Program-made: the position numbers and the translations under genes
Notes under the pieces: model-generated
What the model was told of the DNA's origin: nothing
What the model saw: only the letters and a program-made list of their open reading frames with translations
The model's database searches: none
DNA from: Flavobacteriales bacterium
GTDB lineage: Bacteria; Bacteroidota; Bacteroidia; Flavobacteriales_D; Parvicellaceae
Direction: 5' to 3'
Length of the DNA: 49,353 nt
Assembly (NCBI GenBank): GCA_029244805.1
Contig: JAQWQH010000101.1
Span: forward strand, 1-49,353
Shown here: in pieces, positions 16,627-38,118 of the stretch
Layout: each line of letters starts with the position of its first letter
Numbering within the stretch: position 1 is the stretch's first letter

Positions 16627-17010
16627 GTGAAATCTACTTTACTCATCTTAACCATCTTTATTTTTACCGCAGTTGTTTCTGGCTGCAGAAAACACACCGC
16701 AGGAACTGGAGGAAAAGCGCAAATTACTGTAAAAATAATAAACGGTAACGTAAATATTCCAAATGCAGATGTTCACGTTATGTACAATGCAACATCCTTT
16801 CCGGGAACAACGGCAGTCTATGGAAACACAGTTGCAGCTGACAATACAGGGGATGCTGTATTTGAGGACCTAAAAAGAGGTAATTATTATTTCTACTGTT
16901 CTTTTCTTGCGGACAGCATTCTAAAAGAAGCGGGCGCATCCGTCAACATAGCCAGTAAGTTTGGCGAACAGCACATTGTTATTGATTTTAACGAAGAGGA
17001 TCCATTTTAA
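16627..17010 (+). CDS. small lipoprotein with a carboxypeptidase-regulatory-like (Ig/prealbumin-like) fold
   Basis: GTG start. Signal peptide ending in VVSGC (lipobox-like). The beta-rich body (ITVKIINGN...DNTGDAVFEDLKRGNYYFYC) resembles CarboxypepD_reg-type domains. Confidence 0.55.
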   Translation: MKSTLLILTIFIFTAVVSGCRKHTAGTGGKAQITVKIINGNVNIPNADVHVMYNATSFPGTTAVYGNTVAADNTGDAVFEDLKRGNYYFYCSFLADSILKEAGASVNIASKFGEQHIVIDFNEEDPF

Positions 17011-18207: not shown

Positions 18208-18232
18208 GCAACCATGCATTAACAAAATCGTC
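18208..18232 (+). promoter_or_regulatory. candidate ECF-type promoter (GCAAC-N16-CGTC) upstream of the ECF sigma gene
   Basis: gGCAACcatgcattaacaaaatCGTCataag. An AAC-containing -35 and a CGT-containing -10 with a 16-nt spacer are ECF hallmarks. The motif ends 16 nt before the ATG at 18249. The same bipartite motif recurs at 20528-20552. Confidence 0.4.
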
Positions 18233-18248: not shown

Positions 18249-18812
18249 ATGAAACTAGAGCAGAGAGAGCTGGAAAGAATTGTAGATGGTTGTAAAGCCA
18301 AACGCAGATCTTCCCAACAAAAGATATATGAATTGCTTTACAGTAAAATGCTCCCTGTCTGTTGCAGATACGCGCGCAGCACAGACGAAGCAAAAGACAT
18401 GTTGCAGGATGGTTTCATCAAGGTCTTTGAAAAAATTGAACAATACAATACCGGGGGATCCTTCGAAGGTTGGGTAAGACGAATTATCGTGAACACAGCT
18501 ATTGATGGATATCGTAAAAACAAAAAAGAAGTTTTTATTGACGATGAATCTCGAATAAAGGATGAAAAAGATTGGGAAGATATTGAAAATGAATCTGAAT
18601 ATTCAGAACTTTCAATAAATGATATTGTCGAAGCTATGCAAAACTTATCTCCAGGCTATCAAACAGTGTTCAATTTATATGTTATGGAAGGTTATACTCA
18701 CCAAGAGATAGCTGACGAATTAGAAATTAATATCGGAACTTCTAAATCCAACTTAGCAAAAGCAAAGGCAAACATGAAGATAATGCTTACTGAGAAATTA
18801 AATAGATTATGA
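18249..18812 (+). CDS. RNA polymerase ECF-type sigma-70 family factor
   Basis: 187 aa. Region 2 (DEAKDMLQDGFIKVFEKIEQY...WVRRIIVNTAIDGYRK) and region 4 HTH (GYTHQEIADELEINIGTSKSNLAKAK). Confidence 0.9.
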   Translation: MKLEQRELERIVDGCKAKRRSSQQKIYELLYSKMLPVCCRYARSTDEAKDMLQDGFIKVFEKIEQYNTGGSFEGWVRRIIVNTAIDGYRKNKKEVFIDDESRIKDEKDWEDIENESEYSELSINDIVEAMQNLSPGYQTVFNLYVMEGYTHQEIADELEINIGTSKSNLAKAKANMKIMLTEKLNRL

Positions 18813-20122
18813 AAAATAATCAATTAGACAATTTTGAATCACTTATTAAATCCTCTTTGGATAAGCAAAGGGCAGTTTATGATTCGAATGATTGGAATAA
18901 ATTAAACAACAAGTTAGACCAAGTGAATAGACCATTTTATTCTTCTCCTTGGTTTATAGCTGCTTCAGTAGCTGCTGTTTTAGTATTGGCATATTTTGTA
19001 TCCACGCTTAAAACTGTTACTGAACCAACTCCGCTTGTAATAACTCCACAAGAAAATCAAATATCCGAGCGGAAAAAAGAGTCTGAAGCTGTCGCATTGA
19101 CTGAGAAAGAGCACAACGAAATAAAAGAAGTTTTTATTAAAGCTGACAAAGAAATTAGCAATAAAGAAAAAACAAACCGTAAAGAAGAAATCAAAAAGAA
19201 TACTAGTGAAACCAAAGCATCAGATACAAAAGAGGTTAAATCCCAAAATTTAGAAGACTCCACCATTTCTGAAGAGAACGGATTTATACCTCTTGATGAT
19301 GAATCTTCAGAAGAAGGTAATATTATTCCTGAGGAAATTGTAATCCTTGAAAAAGCCGATTTTCATATGAGCTCCTTTGATTGCTGCGAAGGAACAACTA
19401 TTGATTTTGTAGCCGAAAAACAAAACAATGTTGAATACTTGTGGAGTTTTGACGATGGGAATTACAGTAAAAAAGAAAACCCATCACATACATTTAATAA
19501 AGCTGGAAGTTATAAAGTAAGTTTAATTGTAAGATCTAAAAAAGATAATTCCGTTATGAACAGATCTAATGATCAACTATTAACTGTTTACCCTAAACCA
19601 ATTATTGAATTTGAATGGGAAATGAATGAAGAAAATGGAATTCCTTACACTTCCCTTATTAACTTGACGGAAAAAGCTGTTAATTGGACTTGGGATTTTG
19701 GTGATGGCACAATTTCAAATGAGAAAGGCCCAATTCACACCTATAGAAATAAGGGCCAGTATCTTGTAACATTAACTGCAACAAATAACGAACAATGTAA
19801 TAATACGATGAACAAGGAAATCATAGTCAATGAAGACTATAACCTCTTGGCACCTAACTCTTTTACTCCAAACGGAGATGGCCTAAATGATTATTTCTTA
19901 CCTGCTGCTCTAAATCGTTTAAATGGAAGTTTCACAATGACAATTTACAGTCAAACTGAAGGTTTGATATACGACACTAAAAACATTGACCAACCATGGG
20001 ATGGATCGAATCAAAAGTTAGGCACAAAATGCAAAGAAGGCAGTTACGTTTGGGTTGTAAAACTTACAAACGAAAAGGGTCAAACCGAACAATACAAAGG
20101 AGTAATACTATTGTTGAAATAA
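18809..20122 (+). CDS. single-pass membrane protein with two PKD domains and a T9SS type-B (gliding-motility-associated) C-terminal sorting domain; putative anti-sigma factor
   Basis: ATGA overlap with the sigma gene. About 46 hydrophilic residues precede a TM (residues 47-65, PWFIAASVAAVLVLAYFVS). A K/E-rich linker (~85-150) follows. There are two PKD-like units (WSFDDGN...SHTFNKAGSYKVSL; WDFGDGT...HTYRNKGQYLVTL). The C-terminus reads NLLAPNSFTPNGDGLNDYF...YKGVILLLK. Confidence 0.75.
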   Translation: MKNNQLDNFESLIKSSLDKQRAVYDSNDWNKLNNKLDQVNRPFYSSPWFIAASVAAVLVLAYFVSTLKTVTEPTPLVITPQENQISERKKESEAVALTEKEHNEIKEVFIKADKEISNKEKTNRKEEIKKNTSETKASDTKEVKSQNLEDSTISEENGFIPLDDESSEEGNIIPEEIVILEKADFHMSSFDCCEGTTIDFVAEKQNNVEYLWSFDDGNYSKKENPSHTFNKAGSYKVSLIVRSKKDNSVMNRSNDQLLTVYPKPIIEFEWEMNEENGIPYTSLINLTEKAVNWTWDFGDGTISNEKGPIHTYRNKGQYLVTLTATNNEQCNNTMNKEIIVNEDYNLLAPNSFTPNGDGLNDYFLPAALNRLNGSFTMTIYSQTEGLIYDTKNIDQPWDGSNQKLGTKCKEGSYVWVVKLTNEKGQTEQYKGVILLLK

Positions 20123-20527
20123 AAAATAATAACCTATTATGTAATGCCGTTGGAATGACTTTCACTCAAATCTTGTTCAACCACATTGCACGAAGCAAAC
20201 TGTTAATATTTCAACAGGAAAGAAAGTAAAAACGAAAAATAACTAACTTTCTAAATTCTGATATCTACTATCCCTGAAAAGTCTGTTTTACGAAATTTAT
20301 TTATCTTATTTCAGAAGATTTCTTTGCTTATATTAGATTGTATTTGGAGGCAATTTCTCTAAGTAATGGTTGGATAGACAACCAACTACAAAGTCGGAAA
20401 ACTAAAAAAGCTGTGCTAATGGACTGCAATAAATTGGATTACTCTTTGTTCGATAAATAAGCCACTAATATTGTAACCCTAAACTAAATATTAAAGTATG
20501 AATCTAGAATATTTCAGATGATTAGCT

Positions 20528-20552
20528 GCAACAATCTTGAATTTATATCGTC
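20528..20552 (+). promoter_or_regulatory. candidate ECF-type promoter (GCAAC-N16-CGTC) upstream of the T9SS cargo operon
   Basis: tGCAACaatcttgaatttatatCGTCtgata, ending 65 nt upstream of the ATG at 20618. Both half-sites and the spacing are identical to the site at 18208-18232. Confidence 0.4.
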
Positions 20553-20617
20553 TGATAATCGTTAATATATATTAACCTGAACATCAAGAGTTAATAAAAA
20601 TAAAATATCTTTACCTA

Positions 20618-20962
20618 ATGAACATACTGTATCCAACAATTTTACTCTTACTCTCTTTACCTGTAAAGGATTTATCAGCTCAAACGTCTGAAAGTAAATT
20701 TGTTCAATTCATGATGACAAATGTCGATTCAAGAGAAAAAGTATTGGAAATAGATGAATTTATGCGTAGTCAGCAAGGAGTTGAAATTTCTAGAGCCGAC
20801 CTGGTTAGTAAAAAATATTTATGCATTTATGAATCTACAAGTGGTTTAGACAGAGTCAGATTTGAAACATGGATGGAGGATTTAGGGGTTGAAATCAAAT
20901 GTTTCAGAGAAGGTAAATTCGGTACAGACAAAGTAATTGATCAAAAAATGGACTGCGAATAG
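20618..20962 (+). CDS. small secreted protein of unknown function
   Basis: 114 aa with a signal peptide (MNILYPTILLLLSLPVKDLSAQ). It is the first gene of the tightly packed operon. I recognise no family. Confidence 0.5.
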   Translation: MNILYPTILLLLSLPVKDLSAQTSESKFVQFMMTNVDSREKVLEIDEFMRSQQGVEISRADLVSKKYLCIYESTSGLDRVRFETWMEDLGVEIKCFREGKFGTDKVIDQKMDCE

Positions 20963-20964
20963 TT

Positions 20965-22767
20965 ATGAAATACTACATACATACACTACTTATATTCGTT
21001 GTCTTAGCTATTACTAATGACAGCTATTCCCAATGGGGAGATTGTGACAATTCAATTGAAGCATGCACCAATCCCTCATTTGCTGTAACCCCAAATGGTT
21101 TTGGCGCTATCGAAGAATTTCAATCAGGAACCATTACAAATCCTAGTTCCAATCCAAATGCAACCCCTGGAAACAGCGGATGTTTGCTTTCTGGAGAATT
21201 AAATAGTACATGGCTTTTAATTACTGTAACGTCCCCGGGAACACTAGAGTTTAGCATGGGCGATTTAGCTTCACCTGGCTGTTTTGACTGGATTATGTGG
21301 CCATACGATGCTAATACATGCGACGATATATTTAATAATGTGCTTCCTCCAGTTGCGTGTAATTGGAATGGGGCCTGCAGTGGCCTAACCGGAATGGCAA
21401 ATATTTTACCTATTGGTGCCAGTCAAGGAGATTTTGAAAATGAACTTAATGTTAATGCAGGGGATCAATTTATGATTTGTTTGTCGAACTACGGAGGAGC
21501 AAACACCAACATTCCTCTTAATTTCTTTGGAACAGCAGGAACAACTTGTGGTGGAGCAATTGATGCAACAATATGTGAAGGTGATACGGCGACAATATCA
21601 GCGCTCGACGGAGTAGCATATGTTTGGGAAATAGCAACATTTGGATTTATTACAACCAATGCTTCTGGAGATACGGCTTATGTAAATCCATCTACAACAA
21701 CAAGCTACCCTGTAGTCATAGAATTTGCTGACGGAACCTTCGCAAACGACACTGCTGTGGTTACTGTTATTCCTGCAATCAATGCTTCAGCAACAGTTAT
21801 AGAAGAGCAATGTTTTGGGGACGATACTGCAAGCATCACTATTGACACACCTGGCGGTACAGCGCCATTTGCTTTTACTTTAACTGGCCCTACCTCAAGT
21901 AATAACACCAATGGAATTTTCTCAAATTTACCCTCAGGAAATTATACAGTTGACATTACAGATGATACAGGTTGCTCAGATCAAATAATATTAACGGTCA
22001 ATCCAGGTCCATTGTGCTGTGACATAACTATATCAACTACTGGTGATTCCGTTAATTGTCAAGCGGACTGCTCAGGAATGGTTGTAGTTGATACAGCAAA
22101 CTCTCATCCTCCAGTCAACATCCAATGGTTTGATGAAAACGACAATCCAATTATTGGAGCTTTCAATGATACGCTATTTTCAGCGTGTACTGGGACGTAC
22201 TATGTTGAAGTTTCCGATATTGTTTGTATGAAAAGGGATACAGCAACTATTGGCATAAGCCTGCAGTTACCCACTGCAGTTTCCTCTAATGACACTACTA
22301 TTTCTGTTGAACAAGAAGTACCTCTTTGGTCATCAGGAGGATCCAGCTATATTTGGACTCCAGACACTTACCTAGACTGTTCAGATTGCGAAAACCCTAT
22401 TTCTACACCCGGAAATGATATCACCTACATTATTACAGTCACAGACTCTTTGGGCTGCAGTGTTGAAGACACAATAGAGGTAACTGTTATTTACTATCCA
22501 CTTTTTATTCCAAACGGATTCTCTCCAAATAACGATAATGAAAATGACATTCTTTTTGTCAGAGGTGCTGGTCTTGAATCTATTCAAATGCATATATTTG
22601 ATAAATGGGGTAATCTGGTTTTTGAGACATTAGACATTGAACAAGGTTGGGATGGAACCTTTAATGGGAAACCTGTAAATACTGGAGTTTATGTATATAG
22701 AATGGATGCTACATTGAAAAATGGAGAAACGCTAATGGAATCTGGGAACATAACATTGTTTAGATAG
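20965..22767 (+). CDS. T9SS type-B sorting-domain cargo protein with a Cys-rich N-terminal module and SprB-type repeats
   Basis: Signal peptide. SprB-repeat-like unit (CFGDDTASITIDTPGGTAPFAFTLTGP...FSNLPSGNYTVDITDDTGC) plus a second degenerate unit. The C-terminus PLFIPNGFSPNNDNENDILFVRG...GNITLFR is a variant type-B CTD. Confidence 0.8.
   Translation: MKYYIHTLLIFVVLAITNDSYSQWGDCDNSIEACTNPSFAVTPNGFGAIEEFQSGTITNPSSNPNATPGNSGCLLSGELNSTWLLITVTSPGTLEFSMGDLASPGCFDWIMWPYDANTCDDIFNNVLPPVACNWNGACSGLTGMANILPIGASQGDFENELNVNAGDQFMICLSNYGGANTNIPLNFFGTAGTTCGGAIDATICEGDTATISALDGVAYVWEIATFGFITTNASGDTAYVNPSTTTSYPVVIEFADGTFANDTAVVTVIPAINASATVIEEQCFGDDTASITIDTPGGTAPFAFTLTGPTSSNNTNGIFSNLPSGNYTVDITDDTGCSDQIILTVNPGPLCCDITISTTGDSVNCQADCSGMVVVDTANSHPPVNIQWFDENDNPIIGAFNDTLFSACTGTYYVEVSDIVCMKRDTATIGISLQLPTAVSSNDTTISVEQEVPLWSSGGSSYIWTPDTYLDCSDCENPISTPGNDITYIITVTDSLGCSVEDTIEVTVIYYPLFIPNGFSPNNDNENDILFVRGAGLESIQMHIFDKWGNLVFETLDIEQGWDGTFNGKPVNTGVYVYRMDATLKNGETLMESGNITLFR
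22267..22764 (+). repeat. C-terminal 166-codon module shared with 26606-27103
   Basis: Gapless protein alignment of residues 435-600 with residues 784-949 of the 949-aa protein. 108/166 are identical by hand count. Confidence 0.8.
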
Positions 22768-22769
22768 AT

Positions 22770-23837
22770 ATGAGAATATACCTACTTTCAATAACGATAT
22801 TGGCAATATTTACAGGGCATGCGCAGGACACTGAGTTTTCTCAGTTCAACAGTACGCCGTTGATTCAGAACCCTGCAAACACAGGCATGGGCAGAGGATA
22901 CAATAGAGCGAATTTATTGTACCACTCGCAGCATACTACAACTGGAAATGTTTATTCCACTATGTACGCATCTGCTGATGCCCCTATATTTTCCCATAAA
23001 ATGAAAAGAGCAAGTGGGTTATTTGCAACTGGATTACATTTCTACAACAACACTGAAGGTGATGCCAAACTGAGCACACTTAATGTAGGGCTCACTATTG
23101 CTGGTCATGTTGACTTAGATTATTACAATAAAGGAAGTGTGGGAATTCAAGGAACCTATAATCAACAATCATACAATACAAACGCAATTCAATGGGACAG
23201 CCAATATAATGGAACTTCCTATGACCCTACTTTACCCTCTAATGAAAATTTTTCCGGGAATAGTAATGTGTTTTTTAATATGGGAGTTGGCCTTTTATGG
23301 AAACATTTTTCTAGAGAAGAAAATCTAACCGGTATTGACAAAGGTAGTTTTCAAATTGGATACAGTTTAGTTAATATCACTAGACCATCTTTATCTTTGA
23401 TGAACAATTCAGACAAACAATACTTTAAGCACAATGCGCATTTTAAAAGTCTTTTTGCAATTGGCGAAAAGCACATAGGAGTTGCTCCTTCAGGAATGTT
23501 TTTAATGCAGGGTCCTCATATTGAATATTCAATAGGTAGTGCATTTCTATTTTATCTCAAGTCGGACACGAAATATACTGGATTCATTAAGGAAGCATAT
23601 GTTGGTATGACTATGCATTATAGAAATACAGATGCAATTATACCTGGAATAGTAATTAAGGTTTCTGATATTATTATAGGTATGTCTTATGATTATAGTA
23701 TTGGGAAATTGCAAAACTTTAATGGAGGAATGGGTGGATTTGAATTTTCTCTACAGTTTAATGACACCTATGGAACATTATTCAATCAAGGGAATATGCA
23801 CGTAACAAATGGTGCACAAAACTCCAGAAAATTATAG
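22770..23837 (+). CDS. PorP/SprF-family T9SS membrane protein
   Basis: Signal peptide, then the family-typical N-terminus QDTEFSQFNSTPLIQNPANTGM. About 355 aa with beta-barrel-like alternation. It lies 2 nt downstream of a type-B CTD cargo gene, as in the sprB-sprF arrangement. Confidence 0.8.
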   Translation: MRIYLLSITILAIFTGHAQDTEFSQFNSTPLIQNPANTGMGRGYNRANLLYHSQHTTTGNVYSTMYASADAPIFSHKMKRASGLFATGLHFYNNTEGDAKLSTLNVGLTIAGHVDLDYYNKGSVGIQGTYNQQSYNTNAIQWDSQYNGTSYDPTLPSNENFSGNSNVFFNMGVGLLWKHFSREENLTGIDKGSFQIGYSLVNITRPSLSLMNNSDKQYFKHNAHFKSLFAIGEKHIGVAPSGMFLMQGPHIEYSIGSAFLFYLKSDTKYTGFIKEAYVGMTMHYRNTDAIIPGIVIKVSDIIIGMSYDYSIGKLQNFNGGMGGFEFSLQFNDTYGTLFNQGNMHVTNGAQNSRKL

Positions 23838-23840
23838 TTA

Positions 23841-24260
23841 ATGAAATTAAATATATTACTCTTCGCCTTGGTGATTGCTTACAATTCTTTTGGTCAAAAT
23901 ATAAGCCCAAAGATAATTGAGTCTTTAGGAGCTGAAAAAGCGCATGATTTATTTTCAAATAATCTGGAAAAATATAATCATTTAATGGACTTCATTGATC
24001 ACTCGTGGTATGTTCAAGATGTTTCTTTTAAAGACTTATCAGATTTAAAGGATTTCAGAACTGTTCCCTTTAAGGGCACTGGCAGCAATTTATTTGATGA
24101 TGGGCAAAATTTCCGAATAGAAAATTTCAATCCACTTCTTTACGAAATTAAAATTAAAGATAAATATCCCACAGTTTATAAACTAGGAGAAACTGGAAAA
24201 ATAATTGTTTTCTATTCACGAGAATATTTCATTGAAAAAGCTAAGGAAACTAAATTATGA
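23841..24260 (+). CDS. small secreted protein of unknown function
   Basis: 139 aa with a signal peptide (MKLNILLFALVIAYNSFGQ). Its stop overlaps the next gene's start (ATGA at 24257-24260). Confidence 0.5.
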   Translation: MKLNILLFALVIAYNSFGQNISPKIIESLGAEKAHDLFSNNLEKYNHLMDFIDHSWYVQDVSFKDLSDLKDFRTVPFKGTGSNLFDDGQNFRIENFNPLLYEIKIKDKYPTVYKLGETGKIIVFYSREYFIEKAKETKL

Positions 24261-27106
24261 GACACGCACTTATAATTCTGTTATTAATATTTCCATGGCA
24301 ATTTAAGGCACAAGATTTTTCCATTACTGATGGAGACATTGCAACTTGTTTAGGAACTTTATTTGACTCTGGAGGGACTGGTGGTACTGGATATTCAAAT
24401 AATGAAAGCTATACGGTTACAATTTGCCCAGACAATGCCAATGATGTGATTACGCTAGATTTCATCAATTTTGCCTTAGACAATACCAACACAGCTATTC
24501 CTCCAGCAAATAATATTGATAATATAATTATCTATGATGGTGATAATACGGGTGCAACAACATTAGGAACATACACAGGCAATCAACTACAAGGAACAAT
24601 TGTCACATGTACATCACTTAACACTACTGGATGTATCACCCTTGTATTTACTTCAAATGATGTTGGAACGGGAGTATTTGCTGCCTCAATTACTTGCGCT
24701 ACGCCTTGTCAAAGACCATTTGCACAAGCAATATCAAATCCAGATACAATTGCTAAAATTTGCATAGGTGAATCTGTTAGCTTTGACGGGTCTTCATCGT
24801 ATGCACAAACTGGATTTAACATTGTGGATTACCATTGGGATTTTGATGACGGCACAATTGATAGTTTAAGCGGCGCAAATACAAGCTACACATTTAATGA
24901 CCCAGGTGTGTTTAATGTACAACTGCGCGTAATTGATGATAATGGATGTATCAACTCTAATTTAACTGATTTAAGTATTTGGGTTGCTCCTCCACCCGTA
25001 TTTAACCCAATAGAATATGACACGAGTATGTGCATAGGAGAAACCGTTACAATGACAGCTCACCCTGAGCAATATTCACAAACATGGACCGCTGTTCCAA
25101 ATGGAAACTTGGGAGGACCTCAATATGTGCCGGATCAAGTAGGACAATGCTTTACGACTACTTTAGATTTCACAGCATTCACTCCTGGCCAAACCCTTGG
25201 AAACATTAATGATTTTCTAGATGTATGTGTAAATTTTGAGCATTCATTTATGGGAGATTTGGTAATTTCATTAACCTGCCCTACAGGGCAAAATGTGGTT
25301 CTGCATCAACAAGGTGGTGGTGGAACAAATCTGGGTGACCCAGACCAGATGGATGGCGCTCAATTTCCTGGTGTAGGATGGGACTATTGTTGGAGTCCAG
25401 CCGCCTCTAATGGGACATGGGTAGACAACTCTACAACTAATACAGTTGTAAACAGTAGTGGATCGACATCTTTAATTCCTGGAACTTATGAAAGTATCAA
25501 TCCAATGAACGCGCTAGTTGGATGTGACCTCAACGGAACATGGGAAATCGAATTTTGCGATTTATGGGGAGCTGATGACGGTTTCGTTTTTAGTTGGGGT
25601 ATTAATTTCGATCCAAGTCTATTTCCTCCTTTAACTTCTTTTACCCCATCAATTGGAACCGATCAAGATTCTTCCAGTTGGAATGGCCCCAATATAATAA
25701 ATACATCTAGCGATGGAAACGAAATTATAGTTGCTCATACTGCTCCGGGGAGCTATGATTATACATTTTCTATTACGAGTGACCATGGATGTGTTTCAGA
25801 TACAACTATTACTCTCGTTGTAGAGCCAGGTCCAGAGGTTTTTGCTGGAAATGACACAAGCGCATGTACAGGTCAACAAGTTCAATTAACGGGAGAAATA
25901 TTAAATACCCCACCCCCTTCTCCTCCTTGTGTATTTACAATAGACATGGTAGACACCTTTGGAGATGGTTGGAATGGAGCATCTATTGATGTAATCATAA
26001 ACGGAGTATTAACAAATTACGGAATGCTCAATGGATCAAATGCAGCTTATACGTTTACCCTTAATGACGGAGATACTTGGAACATAGTATTTAATTCCGG
26101 AACATTTGACAATGAAATTATTTACACTTTTACGGACTGTAATGGAAATCAGATATTCACGGATGGCCCCAATCCACTGGTTGGTGCTGCTTTTACTTCT
26201 ACATATGGTAACCCGGTGAGCTATACGTATGGTTGGGACCCTTCAACAGGTTTAACGGATGCCACTATTATTGACCCTATATCATCTATTAGCGGACAAA
26301 CCACATACGTTTTGAGTATTTACCCAACTGGACATCCTCTTTGCGTGACGACAGATACAGTTACAGTTAATATAAACGATCCTTCTGCGGGACAAGACTC
26401 AACTGCAAAAGTTTGCCAATCTGGCACTGGACTATACCTTTATGATTATCTAGGTGACTCTTTAGATATTGGAGGAACTTGGTACAATGGTTCAACAATC
26501 ATCACAGATATTGTAGACCCATCTAATTTGGTTGCTGACACATTCCAATATATCATCGGAAACCAAGGCTGCATGGATACTGCAACGGTTATAATATATG
26601 CTTCTATTCCTGTTCCTATCTCATCAAACGACACATCCATAACGGTAGATCAACAAATTCCACTTTGGACTTCGGGAGGAGAATCTTATATATGGACTCC
26701 TAGTATTTATTTGGACAGCACATTTTCCAGCTCCGTAATATCTACTCCTGGAGAAGATATTACTTATTATATAGAGGTTTTTGATTCTCTTGGTTGTAAG
26801 GCTATTGACTCAATAAGTATCACCGTAGAGTACAACCCTTTATTCATTCCAAATGGATTTTCACCTAATAATGACAACAACAATGATGTGTTGTATGTTC
26901 GAGGGGGAGGAGTTTCACTAATTCATTTTATGGTTTTTGACAAATGGGGAAATTTGGTCTTTGAATCATACGATATGGATAACGGATGGGATGGAACCTA
27001 TAAAGGGAAGCATCTGAATACGGGCGTTTATGTATATCGGATGGATGCAACCTTAAAAAATGGCCAGCCCATTTTTCAAAGTGGAAATGTCACATTGTTT
27101 AGATAG
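24257..27106 (+). CDS. large multidomain T9SS type-B cargo protein (CUB-like, PKD, proprotein-convertase P-domain-like, GDGW module, variant type-B CTD)
   Basis: - Signal peptide.
- Residues 19-150 are CUB-like (C..G.L.DSGG...Y.NN..Y...ICP....I.L.F..F.L......D.I.IYDG......LG.Y.G.....V.S....L.LVF.S....G.GF.A.I.C).
- PKD (HWDFDDGT...VQLRVIDDNGC).
- P-domain-like (FEHSFMGDLVISLTCPTGQNVVLH...LNGTWEIEFCDLWGADDGFVFSWGINF).
- CTD PLFIPNGFSPNNDNNNDVLYVRG...GNVTLFR. Confidence 0.8.
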   Translation: MRHALIILLLIFPWQFKAQDFSITDGDIATCLGTLFDSGGTGGTGYSNNESYTVTICPDNANDVITLDFINFALDNTNTAIPPANNIDNIIIYDGDNTGATTLGTYTGNQLQGTIVTCTSLNTTGCITLVFTSNDVGTGVFAASITCATPCQRPFAQAISNPDTIAKICIGESVSFDGSSSYAQTGFNIVDYHWDFDDGTIDSLSGANTSYTFNDPGVFNVQLRVIDDNGCINSNLTDLSIWVAPPPVFNPIEYDTSMCIGETVTMTAHPEQYSQTWTAVPNGNLGGPQYVPDQVGQCFTTTLDFTAFTPGQTLGNINDFLDVCVNFEHSFMGDLVISLTCPTGQNVVLHQQGGGGTNLGDPDQMDGAQFPGVGWDYCWSPAASNGTWVDNSTTNTVVNSSGSTSLIPGTYESINPMNALVGCDLNGTWEIEFCDLWGADDGFVFSWGINFDPSLFPPLTSFTPSIGTDQDSSSWNGPNIINTSSDGNEIIVAHTAPGSYDYTFSITSDHGCVSDTTITLVVEPGPEVFAGNDTSACTGQQVQLTGEILNTPPPSPPCVFTIDMVDTFGDGWNGASIDVIINGVLTNYGMLNGSNAAYTFTLNDGDTWNIVFNSGTFDNEIIYTFTDCNGNQIFTDGPNPLVGAAFTSTYGNPVSYTYGWDPSTGLTDATIIDPISSISGQTTYVLSIYPTGHPLCVTTDTVTVNINDPSAGQDSTAKVCQSGTGLYLYDYLGDSLDIGGTWYNGSTIITDIVDPSNLVADTFQYIIGNQGCMDTATVIIYASIPVPISSNDTSITVDQQIPLWTSGGESYIWTPSIYLDSTFSSSVISTPGEDITYYIEVFDSLGCKAIDSISITVEYNPLFIPNGFSPNNDNNNDVLYVRGGGVSLIHFMVFDKWGNLVFESYDMDNGWDGTYKGKHLNTGVYVYRMDATLKNGQPIFQSGNVTLFR
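24311..26605 (+). repeat. about 765-codon N-terminal block paralogous to 27406-29703
   Basis: Residues 19-783 of the 949-aa protein align nearly collinearly with ORF-track residues 38-803 of the next protein. Identity is roughly three-quarters by eye over the first ~130 residues, and I saw only small indels. DNA similarity is clearly visible. Confidence 0.8.
26606..27103 (+). repeat. C-terminal 166-codon module shared with 22267-22764
   Basis: See the 22267-22764 entry. Both copies end in identical acattgtttagatag. Confidence 0.8.
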
Positions 27107-27348
27107 AGTTCTTAAAGTAGAACACCATCCACACCAGTTATTTTGTGCTACTTTTGTCAACCGGCAATCAAATCATTAAGTGTATTATTGGAATCCTATG
27201 TAATTTCAAAAAACAAACTAAACACTCTATATCAACAAATTAGAATAAATTAACTTAATTTCAACCCTTAAATTAAGATTTATGGTAAGTAATATTGAAG
27301 CAACTCTTGCAAAATTTAGTGGTTTGTTTTAAATCAATTACGAGAAAG

Positions 27349-30300
27349 ATGAAACATATATCTATCCTATTCATATTATTTATTCTGCCAGCTTATTTAT
27401 TGGCTCAAGATTTTTCCATTGCTGACGGAAACATTTCAACCTGCTCAGGAACACTTTTTGACACTGGTGGGCAAGGCGGAAATGGATATGGAAACAACGA
27501 ATCTTTCACCATAACTATTTGCCCTGATAATGCTAATGATATTATTACATTGGACTTTTTAAATTTTGCTCTTGACAATACAAACACGGCAAATCCCGGA
27601 AACAACATTGACAACATAACTATTTATGATGGTGACAACATTACTGCTTCAACCCTAGGAACATATAGTAATGGCCAACTTCAAGGAACTGTAGTTACTT
27701 GCACATCACTTAACACTTCTGGATGTTTGACTCTTGTATTCACTTCAAATGATATTGGAACAGGAACTTTTGCAGCTGCAATAACTTGTTCTACCCCATG
27801 CCAAAGACCCGTGGCTCTGGCGTCAACATTTCCTGATACAATTGCACGAATATGTAAAGGAGAATCAGTAAGCTTTGATGGATCAGCCTCTTTTGCCCAA
27901 GGTACATTTAACATTGTTGATTACCATTGGGATTTTGACGACGGTACCATTGATAGCACTAGTGGAGCCAATGCAAACTATGTTTTTAATGATGAAGGGG
28001 CTTACGTTGTTCAATTATATGTAATTGATGACAATGGTTGTATAAATTCTAACTTAACAAGCTTAAATGTGTGGGTTGCCCCGGATCCAATATTTAACCC
28101 TATGGAGTTTGACACTACTATTTGCCTTGGAGAAACTGCAGTAATGACAGCTCATCCAGAGCAATACGCTCAGACTTGGGCAGCGGTTCCTGATGGTAAT
28201 TTAGGTGGACCTCAATATGTCCCCGATCAAGTTGGACAGTGCTTTTCTACCGGGCTTACATTTGAAGCTTTTAATCCAGGACAAACCTTAACTAACATAA
28301 ATGACTTATTGGATATTTGTATAAACTTTGAGCATTCATTCATGGGAGACTTAGTTATATCGCTATACTGTCCCTCAGGACAGAGTGTAATTTTACATCA
28401 ACAAAACGGTGGAGGAACCAACCTAGGAGATCCAAATCAAATTGATGACCCTAATTTAGCCGGAACGGGATGGGATTATTGTTGGAGCCCAACTGCAACT
28501 AATGGCACCTGGGAAGATAATGCTACAACAAATACCGTTGTAAATAGCAGTAGTTCAAATTCATTAATAGCCGGAACTTATGAAAGTTTAAACCCAATGA
28601 ATTCATTAGTTGGATGTGACTTGAACGGAACTTGGGAAATTGAATTTTGCGACTTATGGGGTGCAGATGATGGATTTGTATTTAGTTGGGGAATTAATTT
28701 AGACCCCAGTTTATTTCCCCCTCTAACATCATTCACTCCTGAAATCGGAATTCAGTCCGATTCATCATTTTGGTCAGGACCTAATATTACCAATACATCC
28801 GGTGATGGAAATGAAATCACAATTACGCCATTAGCAATTGGTTCCTATGATTATACTTACACTGTAATAGATGAGCACGGATGCTCTAATGACACCTCAA
28901 TTACTTTGGTGATAGAACCAACCCCAGTAGCTGATGCAGGACCTGACTCTACTGTTTGCAATGGGGCAACCATTCAATTGCAAGGAGGAGTAGCAAATAC
29001 GCCTCCACCCCTCCCCGCATGCGACTTTACGATAGACCTCGAAGACACATTTGGAGATGGATGGAATGGAGCATCCATAGATTTAATTATAAACGGTGTT
29101 TCAACAAACTATGGAATGACGGCTGGAACAAATGCATCATATACATTTACTCTGAATGATGGAGATTCTTGGGAAGTCATATTTAATTCTGGAACATATG
29201 ACAGTGAAGTAATTTATACCTTTACAGACTGTAACGGGAATCAAATATTCTCAGATGGTCCAAACCCTACAATTGGATCTGCTTTTACATCTATTTATGG
29301 GAATACAACATCTTACACGTACTCGTGGAGTCCCACAACTGGTTTAACAAACCCAAACATTGCTGAACCGGAAGCGACAATTAGCGGACAAATGACTTAT
29401 ACATTAACTGTATTTCCTACTGGACATCCATTGTGTTTTTCTGTTGACCAAGTTACAATTAATGTTAGCAACTCAAATTCGGCTGGTACTGATGCAGCTG
29501 CAGTATATTGCTCAACGAACCCTGTTGTAGACATGTTTACTTTATTAGGAGGAAACCCTGATATTGGCGGTACTTGGTTAGATGGGAACTTACTAGCCGC
29601 ATCTAATATATATAATCCAGCTTCAAACATTACCGACATTTATGCCTATGTTGTTGGAACTTCAGGTTGTTCTGACACTGCATTCATTGATATTTCTGTG
29701 GGAGCACCATTTGGATTGAGCGTTCCTAACGACACTATTATCTGTGAAAACGGCCAGTTAAATTTATTTGTTAACGCAACTGGTGGTTTTGGACCTCCCT
29801 ACGATGAAACATGGTCTCAAGGACTTACAGGGAATGGACCTTTTACTTTTACCCCAGCTATTTCAGCATGTTATGATGTGTTCGTAACGGATGCAAATGG
29901 CTGTTCATCACCTATTGAAACAATTTGTGTTAATATAAACCCTCCAATTATAGTAACCGCTAGCGGAATAGACTCTATTTGTTCTGGTGACCAGAATCTA
30001 TTGGAAAGTTCTGCTATAGGTGGAAATAGTGGACCTTACAATTATTCTTGGAGTACCCAAGGGACAGCATTAGGAACGACAGAAGATATAACAGTGTCTC
30101 CGATAGTACAAACTGAATACTGTGTTACCATAAGTGACAATTGCGAAACAACTCCTGTAACAGAATGCGTTACCATAAATATGTATCCTCAACCCATTCC
30201 TTTGTTTACGAGTGACATTAATGACGGCTGCTATCCAATTGATGTTACTTTCACCAATAATACCGACATTGGATCTATAGGTTCTGTTTCTTGGGATTTT

Positions 30301-30990
30301 GGAAATGGAAACACATCTTCTCAAACGACAGCAGTACAATCCACATTCAACCAACCAATTTGCTACGATGTTTCACTTACAGTTACTTCACCGCAGGGAT
30401 GCTCTCAATCTGAAATAAATACTGCAATGATTTGTCCATTTGATTATCCAACCGCAGATTTCCAATTGAGTCCAAATCCAACAAACATATTTGATACAGA
30501 TATTTATTTCACCAATATGTCTTCTGAAGATGTAAATAATTGGCAATGGGATTTTGGAAGTGAAACATCCCCAACTTCCTCAATGACTGAAAACCCTACA
30601 GCTATATTTCCTCCGAATGAACCAGAGACGTATCCAATATCTTTAATTGTAACAAATGCTGATGGATGCACAGACACGACTCAAAACACGCTAATCGTAA
30701 ACAGTATTTTTACTTTGTACATACCAAATGCTTTCACTCCTGATGGAGATGGTTTAAATGATGAATTTTATGTTCAAGGAGCTGCTGTATCTATGGATAA
30801 TTTCTCTCTAATGATATTTAACAGATGGGGAGAATTAATTTTTGAAACAACTGATTTAACTGCAAAGTGGGACGGTAATATTAAAGACAAACCTTTACCA
30901 ATAGGTAGCTATGCATGGAAAGTTAACGCAAAAGATATTTACACTGGTCAGCAGCATGAATATTACGGACATGTATTAATTATCCGATAA
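27349..30990 (+). CDS. large multidomain T9SS type-B cargo protein, paralog of 24257-27106 with extra Ig-like repeats, two more PKD domains and a canonical type-B CTD
   Basis: The ORF-track start at 27295 is a TTG. The ATG at 27349 gives MKHISILFILFILPAYLLAQ (signal peptide). It has the same CUB-like, PKD, P-domain-like and GDGW order. Next come GGxxPYxxxWS repeats (GGFGPPYDETWS, GGNSGPYNYSWS) and PKD units (SWDFGNGN, WQWDFGSE). The CTD reads LYIPNAFTPDGDGLNDEFYVQG...GHVLIIR. Confidence 0.8.
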   Translation: MKHISILFILFILPAYLLAQDFSIADGNISTCSGTLFDTGGQGGNGYGNNESFTITICPDNANDIITLDFLNFALDNTNTANPGNNIDNITIYDGDNITASTLGTYSNGQLQGTVVTCTSLNTSGCLTLVFTSNDIGTGTFAAAITCSTPCQRPVALASTFPDTIARICKGESVSFDGSASFAQGTFNIVDYHWDFDDGTIDSTSGANANYVFNDEGAYVVQLYVIDDNGCINSNLTSLNVWVAPDPIFNPMEFDTTICLGETAVMTAHPEQYAQTWAAVPDGNLGGPQYVPDQVGQCFSTGLTFEAFNPGQTLTNINDLLDICINFEHSFMGDLVISLYCPSGQSVILHQQNGGGTNLGDPNQIDDPNLAGTGWDYCWSPTATNGTWEDNATTNTVVNSSSSNSLIAGTYESLNPMNSLVGCDLNGTWEIEFCDLWGADDGFVFSWGINLDPSLFPPLTSFTPEIGIQSDSSFWSGPNITNTSGDGNEITITPLAIGSYDYTYTVIDEHGCSNDTSITLVIEPTPVADAGPDSTVCNGATIQLQGGVANTPPPLPACDFTIDLEDTFGDGWNGASIDLIINGVSTNYGMTAGTNASYTFTLNDGDSWEVIFNSGTYDSEVIYTFTDCNGNQIFSDGPNPTIGSAFTSIYGNTTSYTYSWSPTTGLTNPNIAEPEATISGQMTYTLTVFPTGHPLCFSVDQVTINVSNSNSAGTDAAAVYCSTNPVVDMFTLLGGNPDIGGTWLDGNLLAASNIYNPASNITDIYAYVVGTSGCSDTAFIDISVGAPFGLSVPNDTIICENGQLNLFVNATGGFGPPYDETWSQGLTGNGPFTFTPAISACYDVFVTDANGCSSPIETICVNINPPIIVTASGIDSICSGDQNLLESSAIGGNSGPYNYSWSTQGTALGTTEDITVSPIVQTEYCVTISDNCETTPVTECVTINMYPQPIPLFTSDINDGCYPIDVTFTNNTDIGSIGSVSWDFGNGNTSSQTTAVQSTFNQPICYDVSLTVTSPQGCSQSEINTAMICPFDYPTADFQLSPNPTNIFDTDIYFTNMSSEDVNNWQWDFGSETSPTSSMTENPTAIFPPNEPETYPISLIVTNADGCTDTTQNTLIVNSIFTLYIPNAFTPDGDGLNDEFYVQGAAVSMDNFSLMIFNRWGELIFETTDLTAKWDGNIKDKPLPIGSYAWKVNAKDIYTGQQHEYYGHVLIIR
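27406..29703 (+). repeat. N-terminal block paralogous to 24311-26605
   Basis: See the 24311-26605 entry. Confidence 0.8.
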
Positions 30991-33177: not shown

Positions 33178-34896
33178 CTAAAATGCCAAAGTAATCCCTC
33201 CTAACAAGTTAAACCCTTGAACAGGGTAAGCTGTCCACTGATAGTACTTTTTCCCAGCAAAATTGTTGAAATTGATAAATGCTGATAACTTTTTATTGTA
33301 CCTGTATTCAAAACCTAGATTAGCATCTACAAATGGTTTTAGATTGTAAATATATTTACCATTTTCTTCTGGCTCCACCCCTTCAATTACATTAAAACTA
33401 TATGTTTGTCGGTTACCAACCACAAATATATTTGCACGAACCAATATCTTATCAACCAAATCATACGTTCCTGAAAGCGTTAATTTAAAATCGGGTCTAT
33501 GCCAAACAAAATCTGAACCATAGACGAAGTACTCTCCTTTACCATATAACTTTAATTTTTCTAGTTTCTGGTATGCCAATTGACCACTAATTGTTGTTCT
33601 TGATAAGGTATCGTATAATACTGTAAACTTATTACCATAAGAATAAGTAGAGTCTATTCCAAAAATTGGCAAACCTTCTATTTCTTCATGTCCTATTGCT
33701 AAATTAAATGATATTTTTGAGCTAACTGAACCGCGGATACCTCCATAAATCTTTAGCTTTTGATTGGTGTTTTGAATAGAAGCATTTTCAAGAATAAACG
33801 AATTCTCTAATCGCATAGAATTAAAAGTGTTTCTCTTAATACCTCCGGTCATTCCAATATACGGAATAAAAATATCATTAAATAAGCTGTAATTACCCTC
33901 TAAACAAGGGTAAAAGTGAAACTTAGCAACAGTCCCAATATTTGCATAAATACCTAAGCCCGCTTTTACAGACCAATTATTGCCTCTGGAGAAAATATAA
34001 GGAGTTAGCCTAAAAATAGTATTATTTGTATTTATTGATAAAAGAGAATCTCCAATTGAATCCGAAATCATTAGAGGAATATTTTGTTCCAATCCATTAA
34101 AATCTAACATCACTTCAGCCCCGATTTCCTCTTTGTCCATATATTTAAACAGATTTGCTCCTATCTTAAAATTATGCTCGTTGGTTTTTGCTAAACCATT
34201 TAAAAAACTATAATCTAGGCTAATGTGATGATTCAGCTTAGCACTATCCTTTAACATACTTTTAAGCTCCGTATGAAGCGACAATAAATCATAGACCTGC
34301 TTTATCGTATCTGCAGTTTCTCTATATACCGATGGAATTAAAGTATTCGTAGCATCAAACCCATAATAATGAAAACTATTCCTATCATAATTTAAAGATG
34401 CTTCTAAAGTGCGTTCCTTATAAAAGTGTTTGTAATATCCTCCTAAATGATTATCATTAAATTTGTTGACACCAAGATCTTTTATATTTCCTAGAGAACT
34501 ATGATGAAGCATATCAACACCCCATGCTCTTTTTTTAGAACGCGTAGAATTATAATATCCTTCTAAATAAGTAGTGGTGTACATACCTATTGCTGCTTTG
34601 ACGTATCCTGAATATAATTTATCTAAAGGCTCAATAATTTTTAATCTTGCCGGCTTAATTTGTTGCACCTCAAATGATACATTGTGCTGAATAGGTTCCA
34701 GGTAATACTGAAGCTTCGGAATCTCCATTACTGAATCTTTCGATTGCGGCATCGTACTCATCTTTTTGGACTTCACAGTTGTACGTGCAGCTGAGTCGGT
34801 ACCACTGTAAACATCAGAATCTCCGTCTTGAGAAACTCCTTCTTTTATACCAATTGAGAAAAGTACAACGAATATTATACATGCTATTTTCATCAT
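33178..34896 (-). CDS. putative outer-membrane beta-barrel protein (Bacteroidota 'putative porin'-like)
   Basis: Signal peptide, long stretches of alternating hydrophobic/polar residues rich in Y/G/N, and a C-terminal ...GGITLAF ending in Phe. Its ATG abuts the stop of the upstream TPR gene (TAGATG). Confidence 0.55.
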   Translation of the reverse strand: MMKIACIIFVVLFSIGIKEGVSQDGDSDVYSGTDSAARTTVKSKKMSTMPQSKDSVMEIPKLQYYLEPIQHNVSFEVQQIKPARLKIIEPLDKLYSGYVKAAIGMYTTTYLEGYYNSTRSKKRAWGVDMLHHSSLGNIKDLGVNKFNDNHLGGYYKHFYKERTLEASLNYDRNSFHYYGFDATNTLIPSVYRETADTIKQVYDLLSLHTELKSMLKDSAKLNHHISLDYSFLNGLAKTNEHNFKIGANLFKYMDKEEIGAEVMLDFNGLEQNIPLMISDSIGDSLLSINTNNTIFRLTPYIFSRGNNWSVKAGLGIYANIGTVAKFHFYPCLEGNYSLFNDIFIPYIGMTGGIKRNTFNSMRLENSFILENASIQNTNQKLKIYGGIRGSVSSKISFNLAIGHEEIEGLPIFGIDSTYSYGNKFTVLYDTLSRTTISGQLAYQKLEKLKLYGKGEYFVYGSDFVWHRPDFKLTLSGTYDLVDKILVRANIFVVGNRQTYSFNVIEGVEPEENGKYIYNLKPFVDANLGFEYRYNKKLSAFINFNNFAGKKYYQWTAYPVQGFNLLGGITLAF

Positions 34897-37800: not shown

Positions 37801-38118
37801 ATGTTCAGTTACAAAACGATTCAACAAAAATTCTGCATCTTTATGAAATAATTCCAAAGCACAAATAGCAAAGTAGTATTCACTGTTGACACGTATTTCA
37901 TCTTGATTGTTGTCAACATGCTTTACTACTTCTTTAAATTTATACTGCGCCGCACTATATTTTTCTTTATCGTAAAGATCTTGACCTTCACTATATGTTC
38001 TATAGTTATCTGTATAAATAGCCGTTTTTTGTCCAAACGAACATACAACACTAAATAACAGCAGTACAATTAGAATTTTTCGAATTCCTATCATAAAATA
38101 TATTTTCCTATGGAACAT
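34897..38118 (-). CDS. large tetratricopeptide-repeat (TPR) protein, secreted or lipoprotein
   Basis: 1073 aa made of dozens of TPR-like A/Y-rich helical pairs. N-terminal hydrophobic segment ILIVLLLFSVVCSFGQ. An alternative ATG lies at 38094. Acidic/K-rich C-terminal tail. Confidence 0.75.
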   Translation of the reverse strand: MFHRKIYFMIGIRKILIVLLLFSVVCSFGQKTAIYTDNYRTYSEGQDLYDKEKYSAAQYKFKEVVKHVDNNQDEIRVNSEYYFAICALELFHKDAEFLLNRFVTEHPDHPKGKSVFFQLGKHNYRLKKVKKVIEYLTKVDPYDLSADERIEYYFKLGYSYFKQKDFVLAKVNFYEILEKDTEYKAPAVYYYSHIAYSDKNYQTALEGFQTISCESMFKSIAPYYITQIYYKQEKYKKVIEYAPVYMDSVSSKRKSEFAKLIGDAYYYEKKYSDAIPYLMEFRKGVKATRVDNYQIGFAYYGIKSFENAVKYLSRASTKKDALSQTAYYHMAECYLKLEEKDYASNAFRAASKMDFDPNIKENSLFNYAKLAYELSYNPYDEAIKAFHEYIEIYPNSSQAEEAYEFLIRVYMTTKNYEDALASLERVKNKDDRMKVAYQTVSFNRAVQLFHNGEYAKAMKQFKDVKRYPVDKKMNAESLFWIAECKYQTGELDEAISQYEEFRMEPGAALTTVFHKADYNIGYAYFLKSTPFNSGRNKMISSVERSAYLNSSIASFRNFVLLEDRVKKKTLIDAFLRLADCYFLLSDDAKAIEYFDLVIQKEEGDLSYAYFKKATSQGYIEDHEGKAITLQELTEKYPNSSYQILSIRELADTYKAQGEHQKAIDTYDQFIRDYPQNKYVARAIVNVGSVYLSMKEYNKAEQYLEKVLFEYPNATSENESAVLLMKDIYKGRDDLAGYYDWLVEQGREVAESEIDSVFWEPVQYAWDRGDCANIILKGKEYNSKVENGRHNADAHYYMARCIHQEENLEEALSHYNKVIDKVNNNNYEYALKYAGNISYFLGDYRQAIGDYSTLERVAASEDNIRTSVIGQMRGFWNLNNYQSAIAYSNKTLLLSNLDESLEIEASLIHGLSLKETDRLDEAYIILIALSENTKSIKGAEAKYNAAEILFEQEKNDECEITIMELVKQKPSYDYWIASAIILLGDNFIVKEDYFNAKSSLQSVIDNYEGKDQAEIVALAQSKIDYILDLESQSEKSIEKDDVEIDFEGVDEKDKKLFEDELEEEKQKQNKEPNN

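Follow-up and report, generated by a model that had tools for sequence, protein, structure and literature searches.

What can one short operon do with two surface-protein cargos, a single outer-membrane protein to carry them and two small exported proteins of no named family? The question is raised by positions 20618-27106 of the forward strand of contig JAQWQH010000101.1 (assembly GCA_029244805.1), from an uncultured marine Flavobacteriales bacterium related to Parvicellaceae; the window analysed here is the whole stretch of 49,353 nt. The locus is a compact operon that combines type-B cargo genes of a type IX secretion system (T9SS) with a PorP/SprF-family gene. The reading that we favour, and regard as fairly probable, is that a promoter of the extracytoplasmic function (ECF) type drives the synthesis of two type-B surface proteins together with a cysteine-free, static PorP/SprF-family anchor common to both and, for each cargo, a small periplasmic partner specific to its passenger.

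Operon structure, conservation and transcription

The five genes follow one another on the + strand: small1 (114 amino acids, aa; 20618-20962), cargo 1 or W600 (600 aa; 20965-22767), the PorP/SprF-family outer-membrane shuttle or anchor (355 aa; 22770-23837), small2 (139 aa; 23841-24260) and cargo 2 or W949 (949 aa; 24257-27106). Spacers of 2, 2 and 3 nt separate the first four, and small2 and the 949-aa gene share a 4-nt ATGA overlap. A reading made from the letters alone (the sequence-only reading) had described five same-strand genes with gaps of 2, 2, 3 and -4 nt, and the coordinates of the open reading frames (ORFs) agree with it exactly. The gene order and the families that it proposed are likewise confirmed by hidden Markov model (HMM) scores above their cut-offs, which are 27 bits for PF13585 (CHU_C) and 35 bits for TIGR04131. 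W600 scores 63.5 and 53.6 bits with these models and has a weak SprB repeat; W949 scores 58.4 and 47.9 bits and also contains PKD and P_proprotein (proprotein-convertase P) domains. Pfam and NCBIfam scans of the two cargos brought up no catalytic domain. The 355-aa protein, which had been called PorP/SprF-like, matches PF11751 over residues 17-329 (107.5 bits, cut-off 22.3) and TIGR03519 over residues 3-331 (128.7 bits, cut-off 90.55), and it has no sequence relative in the PDB.

By inspection, all five products begin with a Sec signal peptide followed by Gln at +1, the peptides ending in LSA, SYS (600 aa), GHA, SFG and FKA (949 aa), and Sec would take all of them to the periplasm. Neither small protein has a lipobox cysteine or a C-terminal domain (CTD) for T9SS export, as judged by inspection and HMMs, and neither has a Pfam or NCBIfam match. 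The earlier description of a self-contained adhesin or surface-protein export cassette stands in part. The HMMs confirm an operon of type-B cargo and PorP/SprF-family genes, but it is not self-contained, as the core T9SS is needed and an ECF-type promoter is apparent; it is only the domain content (PKD, P-domain, SprB/Ig-like, no catalytic domain) that suggests adhesins. The functional neighbourhood also extends beyond the five genes, with a sigma gene and a putative anti-sigma gene upstream (18249-20122) and a 1231-aa paralogue of cargo 2 downstream.

The five-gene order is kept in loci L001-L007 and L009-L011 and in the sufficiently long loci of L022-L034, amounting to more than 20 related marine loci, and in those relatives the cassette ends against gyrB on the opposite strand. 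A first search recovered 42 homologues of small1 (61-98% identity) and 48 of small2 (49-98%), all from marine metagenomes or metagenome-assembled genomes (MAGs); the sources from genome collections were three 'uncultured Flavobacteriales' MAGs and one Parvicellaceae chromosome. Pairwise ratios of nonsynonymous to synonymous substitution (dN/dS) against two relatives are 0.15-0.22 for small1, 0.18-0.25 for small2 and 0.05-0.11 for the other three genes, the 355-aa gene having 0.05-0.06. Because the order is conserved, dN/dS is low and RNA contigs cover them, both small ORFs are real genes, and the five ORFs are not chance. The possibility that the small ORFs might be neither conserved nor expressed, which the sequence-only reading had raised against itself, is answered by the same homologues, substitution ratios and RNA contigs.

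Contigs assembled from four marine metatranscriptomes cover the whole cassette, and three of them, X26#11 (21165-25543), X25#4 (22140-24936) and X28#27 (20676-21260), bridge all four junctions. RNA depth is zero at 20528-20581 in four runs and rises to 9-50 from 20582-20625 onward; high-depth contigs begin at 20582, 20601 and 20625, and depth declines across 26820-27700. Within the operon the depth is highest over small1 (15-64, compared with 16-37 further downstream). These data fit one transcript running from just 5' of small1 to the end of the 949-aa gene, and contigs over every junction bear out the compact, co-transcribed unit that had been proposed.

The C-terminal module and the PorP/SprF-family protein

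W600 and W949 are unrelated apart from their last 180 aa, which are 64% identical (BLASTP, E 3e-74). This module, an immunoglobulin (Ig)-like domain plus a type-B CTD, occupies 22225-22764 (+) in cargo 1 and 26564-27103 (+) in cargo 2, where BLASTP and the CTD identity matrix place it in the same class. Over the last 90 aa the two cargos are 70% identical, compared with 26-40% between either of them and the type-B CTDs of W437 and W1231, the 437-aa and 1231-aa proteins encoded upstream and downstream of the cassette; W600 is 33-36% identical to the other CTDs of the window. The variant CTD that had been claimed as common to both cargos is thus well supported.

The rest of W949 has a different kinship. 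Over its first 780 aa it shares 64% identity with the 1231-aa paralogue, and in the CTD only 35%. The paralogue lies at 27349-30990 (+), where the likely start is the ATG at 27349 and the ORF tool chose a TTG at 27295. It carries a different type-B CTD (TIGR04131, 58 bits), 35-40% identical to the CTDs of cargos 1 and 2, and forms a separate transcription unit, with a TAnnTTTG box at 27149 in the 188-nt gap before it. It has no small2 in front and no adjoining shuttle, and a copy stands between cassette and gyrB in 0 of more than 13 close relatives.

The origin of the shared module is suggested by outgroup loci L008 and L012. There the CTD class is found on the 600-type cargo only, and the 949-type body has a 1231-type C-terminus. 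Because only the 600-type cargo has this class in L008 and L012, W949 is a derived chimera, a mosaic that gained the module cognate to the adjoining shuttle. Recent gene conversion between the two modules was considered and is excluded by their DNA identity of 64% and a longest exact run of 13 nt; the transfer is an old event. In all sampled members of the clade the modules of the two cargos remain ~63-68% identical, under purifying selection.

The 355-aa gene adjoins type-B cargo genes on both sides, W600 lying 2 nt upstream and W949 downstream after small2, and this arrangement is kept in relatives. Shuttle and module diverge in step across loci, with identities of 96/88% in L009, 81/78% in L033, 59/54% in L008 and 37/41% in L012. 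In Flavobacterium johnsoniae, type-B cargos require specific PorP/SprF-like shuttles, and the cognate shuttle is encoded immediately 3' of its cargo (PMC12618676). The orphan shuttle Fjoh_1677 handles three cargos whose CTDs are more than 44% identical, and a non-cognate shuttle accepts a CTD at 68% identity and not at 26-43% (PMC12618676). Since the 70% CTD identity of W600 and W949 exceeds these sharing levels, it is plausible that both are clients of the 355-aa shuttle. By CTD identity and the F. johnsoniae rules, the PorP/SprF-family beta-barrel would collect both cargos at the translocon and hold them on the surface. The same identity yardstick predicts that W437 and W1231 should not use it. 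The giant SprB-like protein encoded upstream of the cassette in relatives was considered as a third client and set aside, as its identity to W600 and W949 over the last 90 aa (31-37%) is too low.

A shuttle that serves W600 only is distinctly unlikely. On that account W949 would use another shuttle, and the likeness of the two modules would reflect common ancestry. The account takes its appeal from the F. johnsoniae order of cargo followed by cognate shuttle, from L008 and L012, where the gene after PorP has a non-cognate CTD, and from the finding that conserved CTD motifs are necessary and not sufficient for specificity (PMC12618676). It sits poorly with a CTD identity above the 68% at which cross-handling occurs and with the retention of the module between the two cargos across the sampled clade under purifying selection, and the scanned ORFs of the window include no second PorP/SprF gene from which W949 could be served.

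The periplasmic tail of SprF bears a Cys-X-Cys motif that makes a disulfide link to GldK (Cys343) and couples SprB to the gliding track, and carrier function is intact without it (PMC12635249). Some type-B cargos of F. johnsoniae are static on the surface (PMC12618676). The 355-aa protein, with a tail ending in ...NGAQNSRKL, has no cysteine anywhere. Cysteine is likewise absent from the orthologues of L002, L008 and L033, and that of L012 has one, outside the tail. It has no cysteine tail and no giant SprB-like gene lies upstream in the window, so that the protein, although a member of the family, is not an equivalent of SprF proper. Because it has no cysteine, and so no SprF-type Cys-X-Cys tail, it is predicted to be a static anchor and not a gliding-track carrier, and its cargos would be uncoupled from the track.

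The two small exported proteins

The sequence-only reading recognised no family for either small protein. This holds for named families, in that no Pfam or NCBIfam model matches either of them, but small1 does belong to an unnamed family. A profile search of 1.84 billion representatives yielded 139 clusters at E <= 1e-3, nearly all of them stand-alone proteins of 100-135 aa annotated only as 'hypothetical protein' in their source records, and the family spans at least Flavobacteriia and Saprospiria. Two apparent multi-domain proteins with small1 repeats, P0186 and P0188, proved to be SpaA and SEA repeat proteins and were discarded as spurious matches.

Across 45 diverse members of the family, Cys95 and Cys113 are the sole invariant residues, as would suit a disulfide bond in a protein that is exported. 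The AlphaFold 2 (AF2) model of small1, with a predicted local distance difference test score (pLDDT) of 77.6, has the beta-alpha-beta-beta-alpha-beta order of ferredoxin/HMA-like folds. Its best Foldseek matches in the PDB are HMA/copper-chaperone domains, with target template-modelling (TM) scores of 0.7-0.8 and 8-19% identity. A metallochaperone role agrees with this fold and was nevertheless rejected, as both the CxxC motif and an HMM match are absent: the loop after strand 1 reads TNVDSRE, and there is no Pfam HMA match at E <= 0.01.

The distribution of small1 is more informative than its fold. Cargo 1 begins with an uncharacterised, Cys-containing passenger domain of 185 aa, termed NTD-600 (W600 residues 23-205; 21031-21579, +), which has no Pfam relatives and no PDB sequence relatives. 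Every cargo found directly 3' of a small1-family gene has a domain 42-66% identical to NTD-600, and neighbouring cargos without small1 lack it. By an HMM of the domain, each small1 gene in these loci is matched by a single NTD-600 copy, which directly follows it, and there is no copy where small1 stands alone (Aureispira, L021). L008 has two small1 paralogues, each directly 5' of a cargo whose first 420 aa are 56-57% identical to W600; these two cargos have different CTDs, and only one of them adjoins a PorP/SprF gene. In L017/L018, L019 and L020, more distant small1 genes (~20-28% identity) are followed by a CHU_C cargo of 873-895 aa, either with an overlap or within 5 nt, and in L015/L016 the 529-aa protein 3' of small1 has only a faint type-A CTD match. 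In L015, L017, L019 and L020 the 8-kb flanks of small1 include no called PorP/SprF gene.

Because this 1:1 pairing holds whatever the CTD type or the adjacency of PorP, small1 is, on comparison of these loci, the partner of the passenger domain NTD-600, and not of the PorP/SprF step or of a CTD type. The idea that the small proteins are generic accessories of PorP/CTD export does not survive, as they follow the body of the cargo instead, small1 with NTD-600 and small2 with the 949/1231-type body. Some family members occur in another setting. In L013/L014 (Aureispira sp. CCB-E, CP133671.1) and L021, a lone small1 lies 3' of a thioredoxin-reductase-like gene with no NTD-600 cargo within 8 kb, and is followed by ~0.9-1 kb without a called gene.

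The homologues of small2 all belong to one marine clade, and small2 is confined to the window's clade and L008. Three helices and a small sheet make up its AF2 model (pLDDT 78.5), which has no structural match, the best Foldseek hit in the PDB having an E of 1.7. In every sampled locus that reads past it, small2 is immediately 5' of a 949/1231-type body (c949_N-type), which is the 949-aa gene in the window's clade and a 1221-aa gene in L008. The link between small2 and this cargo type is consistent, yet not obligatory, small2 being dispensable for that body. Two leads on small2 were dropped. Its likeness to the nuclease inhibitor NuiA is not significant (PDB profile match, E 0.48), and a fusion to small1 in P0099 and P0112, suggested by NPDKY-like motifs in their C-terminal extensions, was not upheld by a small2-profile hmmsearch (best E 0.04; P0099/P0112 E > 1).

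In the reading that we favour, each cargo gene would be translationally coupled to the small gene before it, small1 to the NTD-600 cargo and small2 to the 949/1231-type body. From this gene pairing we infer that the small proteins bind their passengers in the periplasm before export, where they may act as holdases or chaperones or may mask a binding surface.

The pairing would also suit inhibitors or immunity proteins that neutralise a harmful or sticky NTD-600, and perhaps the 949-type body, until export, in the manner of a trans-acting prodomain or a toxin-immunity pair. One small1 per NTD-600 at a spacing of 0-5 nt suggests stoichiometric co-production, and the lone small1 genes in Aureispira resemble orphan immunity genes. 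Across lineages NTD-600 (42-66% identity) is far better kept than small1 (~20-28% to the L015-L020 partners), and the inhibitory prodomains of subtilisin-type proteases are also ferredoxin-like, with the same beta-alpha-beta-beta-alpha-beta order. Other observations count against this role. Neither Pfam nor the PDB offers a relative of NTD-600, and no His is invariant in the domain; the residues that are invariant, mainly Cys, Asn, Pro and Gly, point to a binding domain rich in disulfides; neither cargo has a catalytic domain, and the Foldseek matches of small1 are HMA domains, not inhibitors. We consider an inhibitory role unlikely.

Still less likely is a role as co-exported subunits, in which the small proteins would bind the folded cargo in the periplasm and leave with it through the T9SS as part of a two-chain surface structure. 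In its favour, folding of T9SS substrates probably precedes their export, and the highest RNA depth of the operon lies over small1. The 1:1 pairing and 0-5 nt spacing count here as they do for an inhibitor. Against these stand the small proteins themselves, which have no CTD, and the literature, in which our search found no hitch-hiking through the T9SS. A passenger-specific periplasmic partner that acts before export remains the role that we prefer.

Promoter, neighbouring genes and related systems

A motif search places GCAAC-N16-CGTC at 20528-20552 (+), 66 nt 5' of small1, and a second copy at 18208-18232 (+), 17 nt 5' of the ATG of the sigma gene. The AAC/CGT signature is typical of ECF promoters. 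Exact matches in the 49-kb window number 2, compared with 0.04 expected, a statistic that is indicative only. A start just 3' of 20552 agrees with the RNA 5' ends at 20582-20625. The motif, or a variant with CGTT or CATC, lies 5' of small1 in most close relatives checked. Outgroup L008 has three copies, before small1a, small1b and small2, and L012 has two, before small1 and in the 69-nt gap before the 949-type cargo. With the copies 5' of the distant small1 genes in L017, L019 and L020, the motif is present in six or more lineages overall.

Other signals in this region were examined. No TAnnTTTG -7 box of the Bacteroidota type occurs on the + strand in 20123-20617. A sigma-70-like site at 20578-20606 was rejected as the operon promoter, as RNA contigs start at 20582 and 20601, 5' of its implied start. 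The idea that the conserved 240 bp, as leader or intergenic region, hold a structured RNA was also rejected, there being no Rfam match at E <= 1 and low RNA depth.

These 240 bp 5' of small1 are conserved among relatives despite a different upstream gene in the window. In L001-L007 and L009-L011 a giant SprB-like gene that encodes up to 4875 aa (SprB repeats, PKD, CHU_C) ends ~240 bp 5' of small1, with a terminator hairpin after it. Neither this gene nor the hairpin is present in the window (20123-20370), where mdh stands instead, together with the sigma gene and the 437-aa gene. Because the window differs from its relatives 5' of the 240-bp promoter region, the upstream context has been rearranged while this region was kept. 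In the outgroups the genes lie in separate units led by the motif (GGCAACC-N15-CGT): small1a-604-PorP, small1b-854 and small2-1221 in L008 (3443-14120), and small1-744-PorP and a 1229-aa cargo without small2 in L012 (9874-17350). The compact operon of the window looks like a fusion of such units; by this comparison, the outgroups have several promoter-plus-pair units and the window's clade compacted them into one operon.

The sigma gene (18249-18812, +; TIGR02937, PF04542, PF08281) encodes an ECF sigma factor that is the candidate regulator of the operon. Its product scores 94.7 bits with TIGR02937 (cut-off 42.9) and has Sigma70_r2 and r4_2 domains, and RNA contigs cover the gene. The sharing of the motif and the position of the RNA 5' ends suggest that transcription of the operon starts at GCAAC-N16-CGTC, probably served by this sigma factor encoded 1.8 kb upstream. 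The 437-aa gene (18809-20122, +), also covered by RNA contigs, overlaps the sigma gene by 4 nt. W437 combines one transmembrane segment at the N-terminus with a linker rich in Lys and Glu, a pair of PKD domains and a type-B CTD (PKD_4 98.8 bits, CHU_C 56.7 bits, and TIGR04131 32.7 bits, just below its cut-off of 35). By position it is a putative anti-sigma factor; no anti-sigma domain model in Pfam or NCBIfam matches it, and only the overlap with the sigma gene and the single transmembrane segment fit that role. It is unusual for an anti-sigma-like protein anchored in the membrane to carry a secretion signal, and this suggests secretion-coupled signalling.

A more far-reaching proposal joins these elements into a secretion-coupled regulon. 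It would comprise a membrane-anchored 437-aa anti-sigma factor bearing a type-B export signal for the T9SS, an ECF sigma factor firing GGCAACC-N15-CGTC at modules of small partner plus cargo, and small1 as the first class of cargo-specific periplasmic chaperones of the T9SS. A working T9SS would engage or remove the 437-aa protein and so release the adjacent ECF sigma factor, much as sigma-28 is freed by the export of FlgM. Taken together, these parts form a scheme that we consider improbable.

Several points weigh against the favoured account. The motif was refined after both copies in the window had been seen, so that 0.04 expected overstates its significance. The sigma/anti-sigma pair adjoins the cassette in no sampled relative, and one RNA contig starts at 18179, 5' of the motif before the sigma gene. 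The RNA contigs in general are assemblies from ~95%-identical strains, carry no strand information and may include DNA. On the side of the small proteins, small1-like genes occur without an adjacent cargo in Aureispira and L021, and neither the cargo of the same type in L012 nor W1231 has small2 in front of it. Finally, the proposed protein-protein contacts are all deduced indirectly, from gene pairing and CTD identity.

Other genes of the window have a T9SS flavour or no family at all. On the - strand are a PorE-family protein at 7351-9369 (TPR, PD40, CarboxypepD_reg and OmpA domains; NF052230 521 bits, under the cut-off of 600), a PorV/PorQ-family protein at 47349-48416 (NF033709, 136 bits) and a 1073-aa TPR protein at 34897-38118 with only a weak PorW/SprE match. 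The last of these adjoins a 572-aa ORF without a Pfam or NCBIfam match (33178-34896, -), and it does so in relatives too (573 aa, L002-L007). A 127-aa ORF between secDF and mdh (16627-17010, +) has a lipoprotein-type signal (…AVVSGC) and no family match.

A comparison with systems already described shows what the locus shares with them and where it departs. As in the F. johnsoniae pairs such as Fjoh_3952/Fjoh_3951, a type-B cargo gene adjoins a PorP/SprF-family gene and one shuttle may serve several cargos (PMC12618676). Here, in contrast, two cargos flank one shuttle in a compact operon, one of them having gained its module by domain swap, and a small exported partner gene precedes each cargo, a feature not described for those pairs (PMC12618676). 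The SprB/SprF system (sprCDBF) also joins a PorP/SprF-family carrier to a type-B CTD protein with SprB-type repeats (PMC12635249, PMC9143113), and in relatives a giant SprB-like gene lies directly 5' of the cassette. The window itself is without such a gene, however; its carrier is cysteine-free, there are no equivalents of SprC or SprD, and the giant CTD is only 31-37% identical to the CTD class of the cassette.

The PorP-PorE-PG1035 assembly of Porphyromonas gingivalis similarly has a PorP-family barrel that holds a type-B CTD protein (PMC9143113), and the window contains a PorE-family gene. That gene lies on the other strand at a distance of 11 kb, and the PorP-like protein of the cassette is linked to cargo and is not the core PorP. 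In the PorA-PorXY-SigP pathway of P. gingivalis, a CTD-bearing T9SS protein likewise feeds an ECF sigma pathway over T9SS-related genes (PMC7712824, PMC12152298); the difference here is that the CTD is on a putative membrane-anchored anti-sigma factor encoded beside the sigma gene, and that the predicted targets are cargo operons and not the machinery. Metallochaperones of the HMA/Atx1-CopZ type have the same predicted fold as small1, which is exported, has the Cys95/Cys113 pair instead of CxxC and is 8-19% identical to them. A search of the literature found no substrate-specific periplasmic chaperones for the T9SS.

Pairs of cargo and PorP/SprF proteins, and shuttles common to several cargos, are thus already known. 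What is new is that each small protein keeps to one kind of cargo and not to the carrier, together with a second client produced by domain swap, the small1/NTD-600 module, which occurs in at least two Bacteroidota classes (Flavobacteriia and Saprospiria), a small2 peculiar to the clade, an ECF-type promoter that is conserved and the CTD-bearing anti-sigma-like neighbour. The recognition, escort and surface placing of type-B T9SS cargos are only now being worked out, and the locus is a natural experiment in shuttle sharing, with two unrelated passengers, the same 180-aa module and one shuttle. If small1-family proteins are cargo-specific periplasmic partners, they would supply a missing step between Sec and the translocon, and such a role would account for the failed secretion of some heterologous T9SS cargos. 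The ECF-type promoter and the CTD-bearing anti-sigma-like neighbour suggest a testable link between secretion and cargo expression. The hosts are abundant uncultured marine Flavobacteriales, for which surface proteins of this kind probably matter in attachment to particles or algae.

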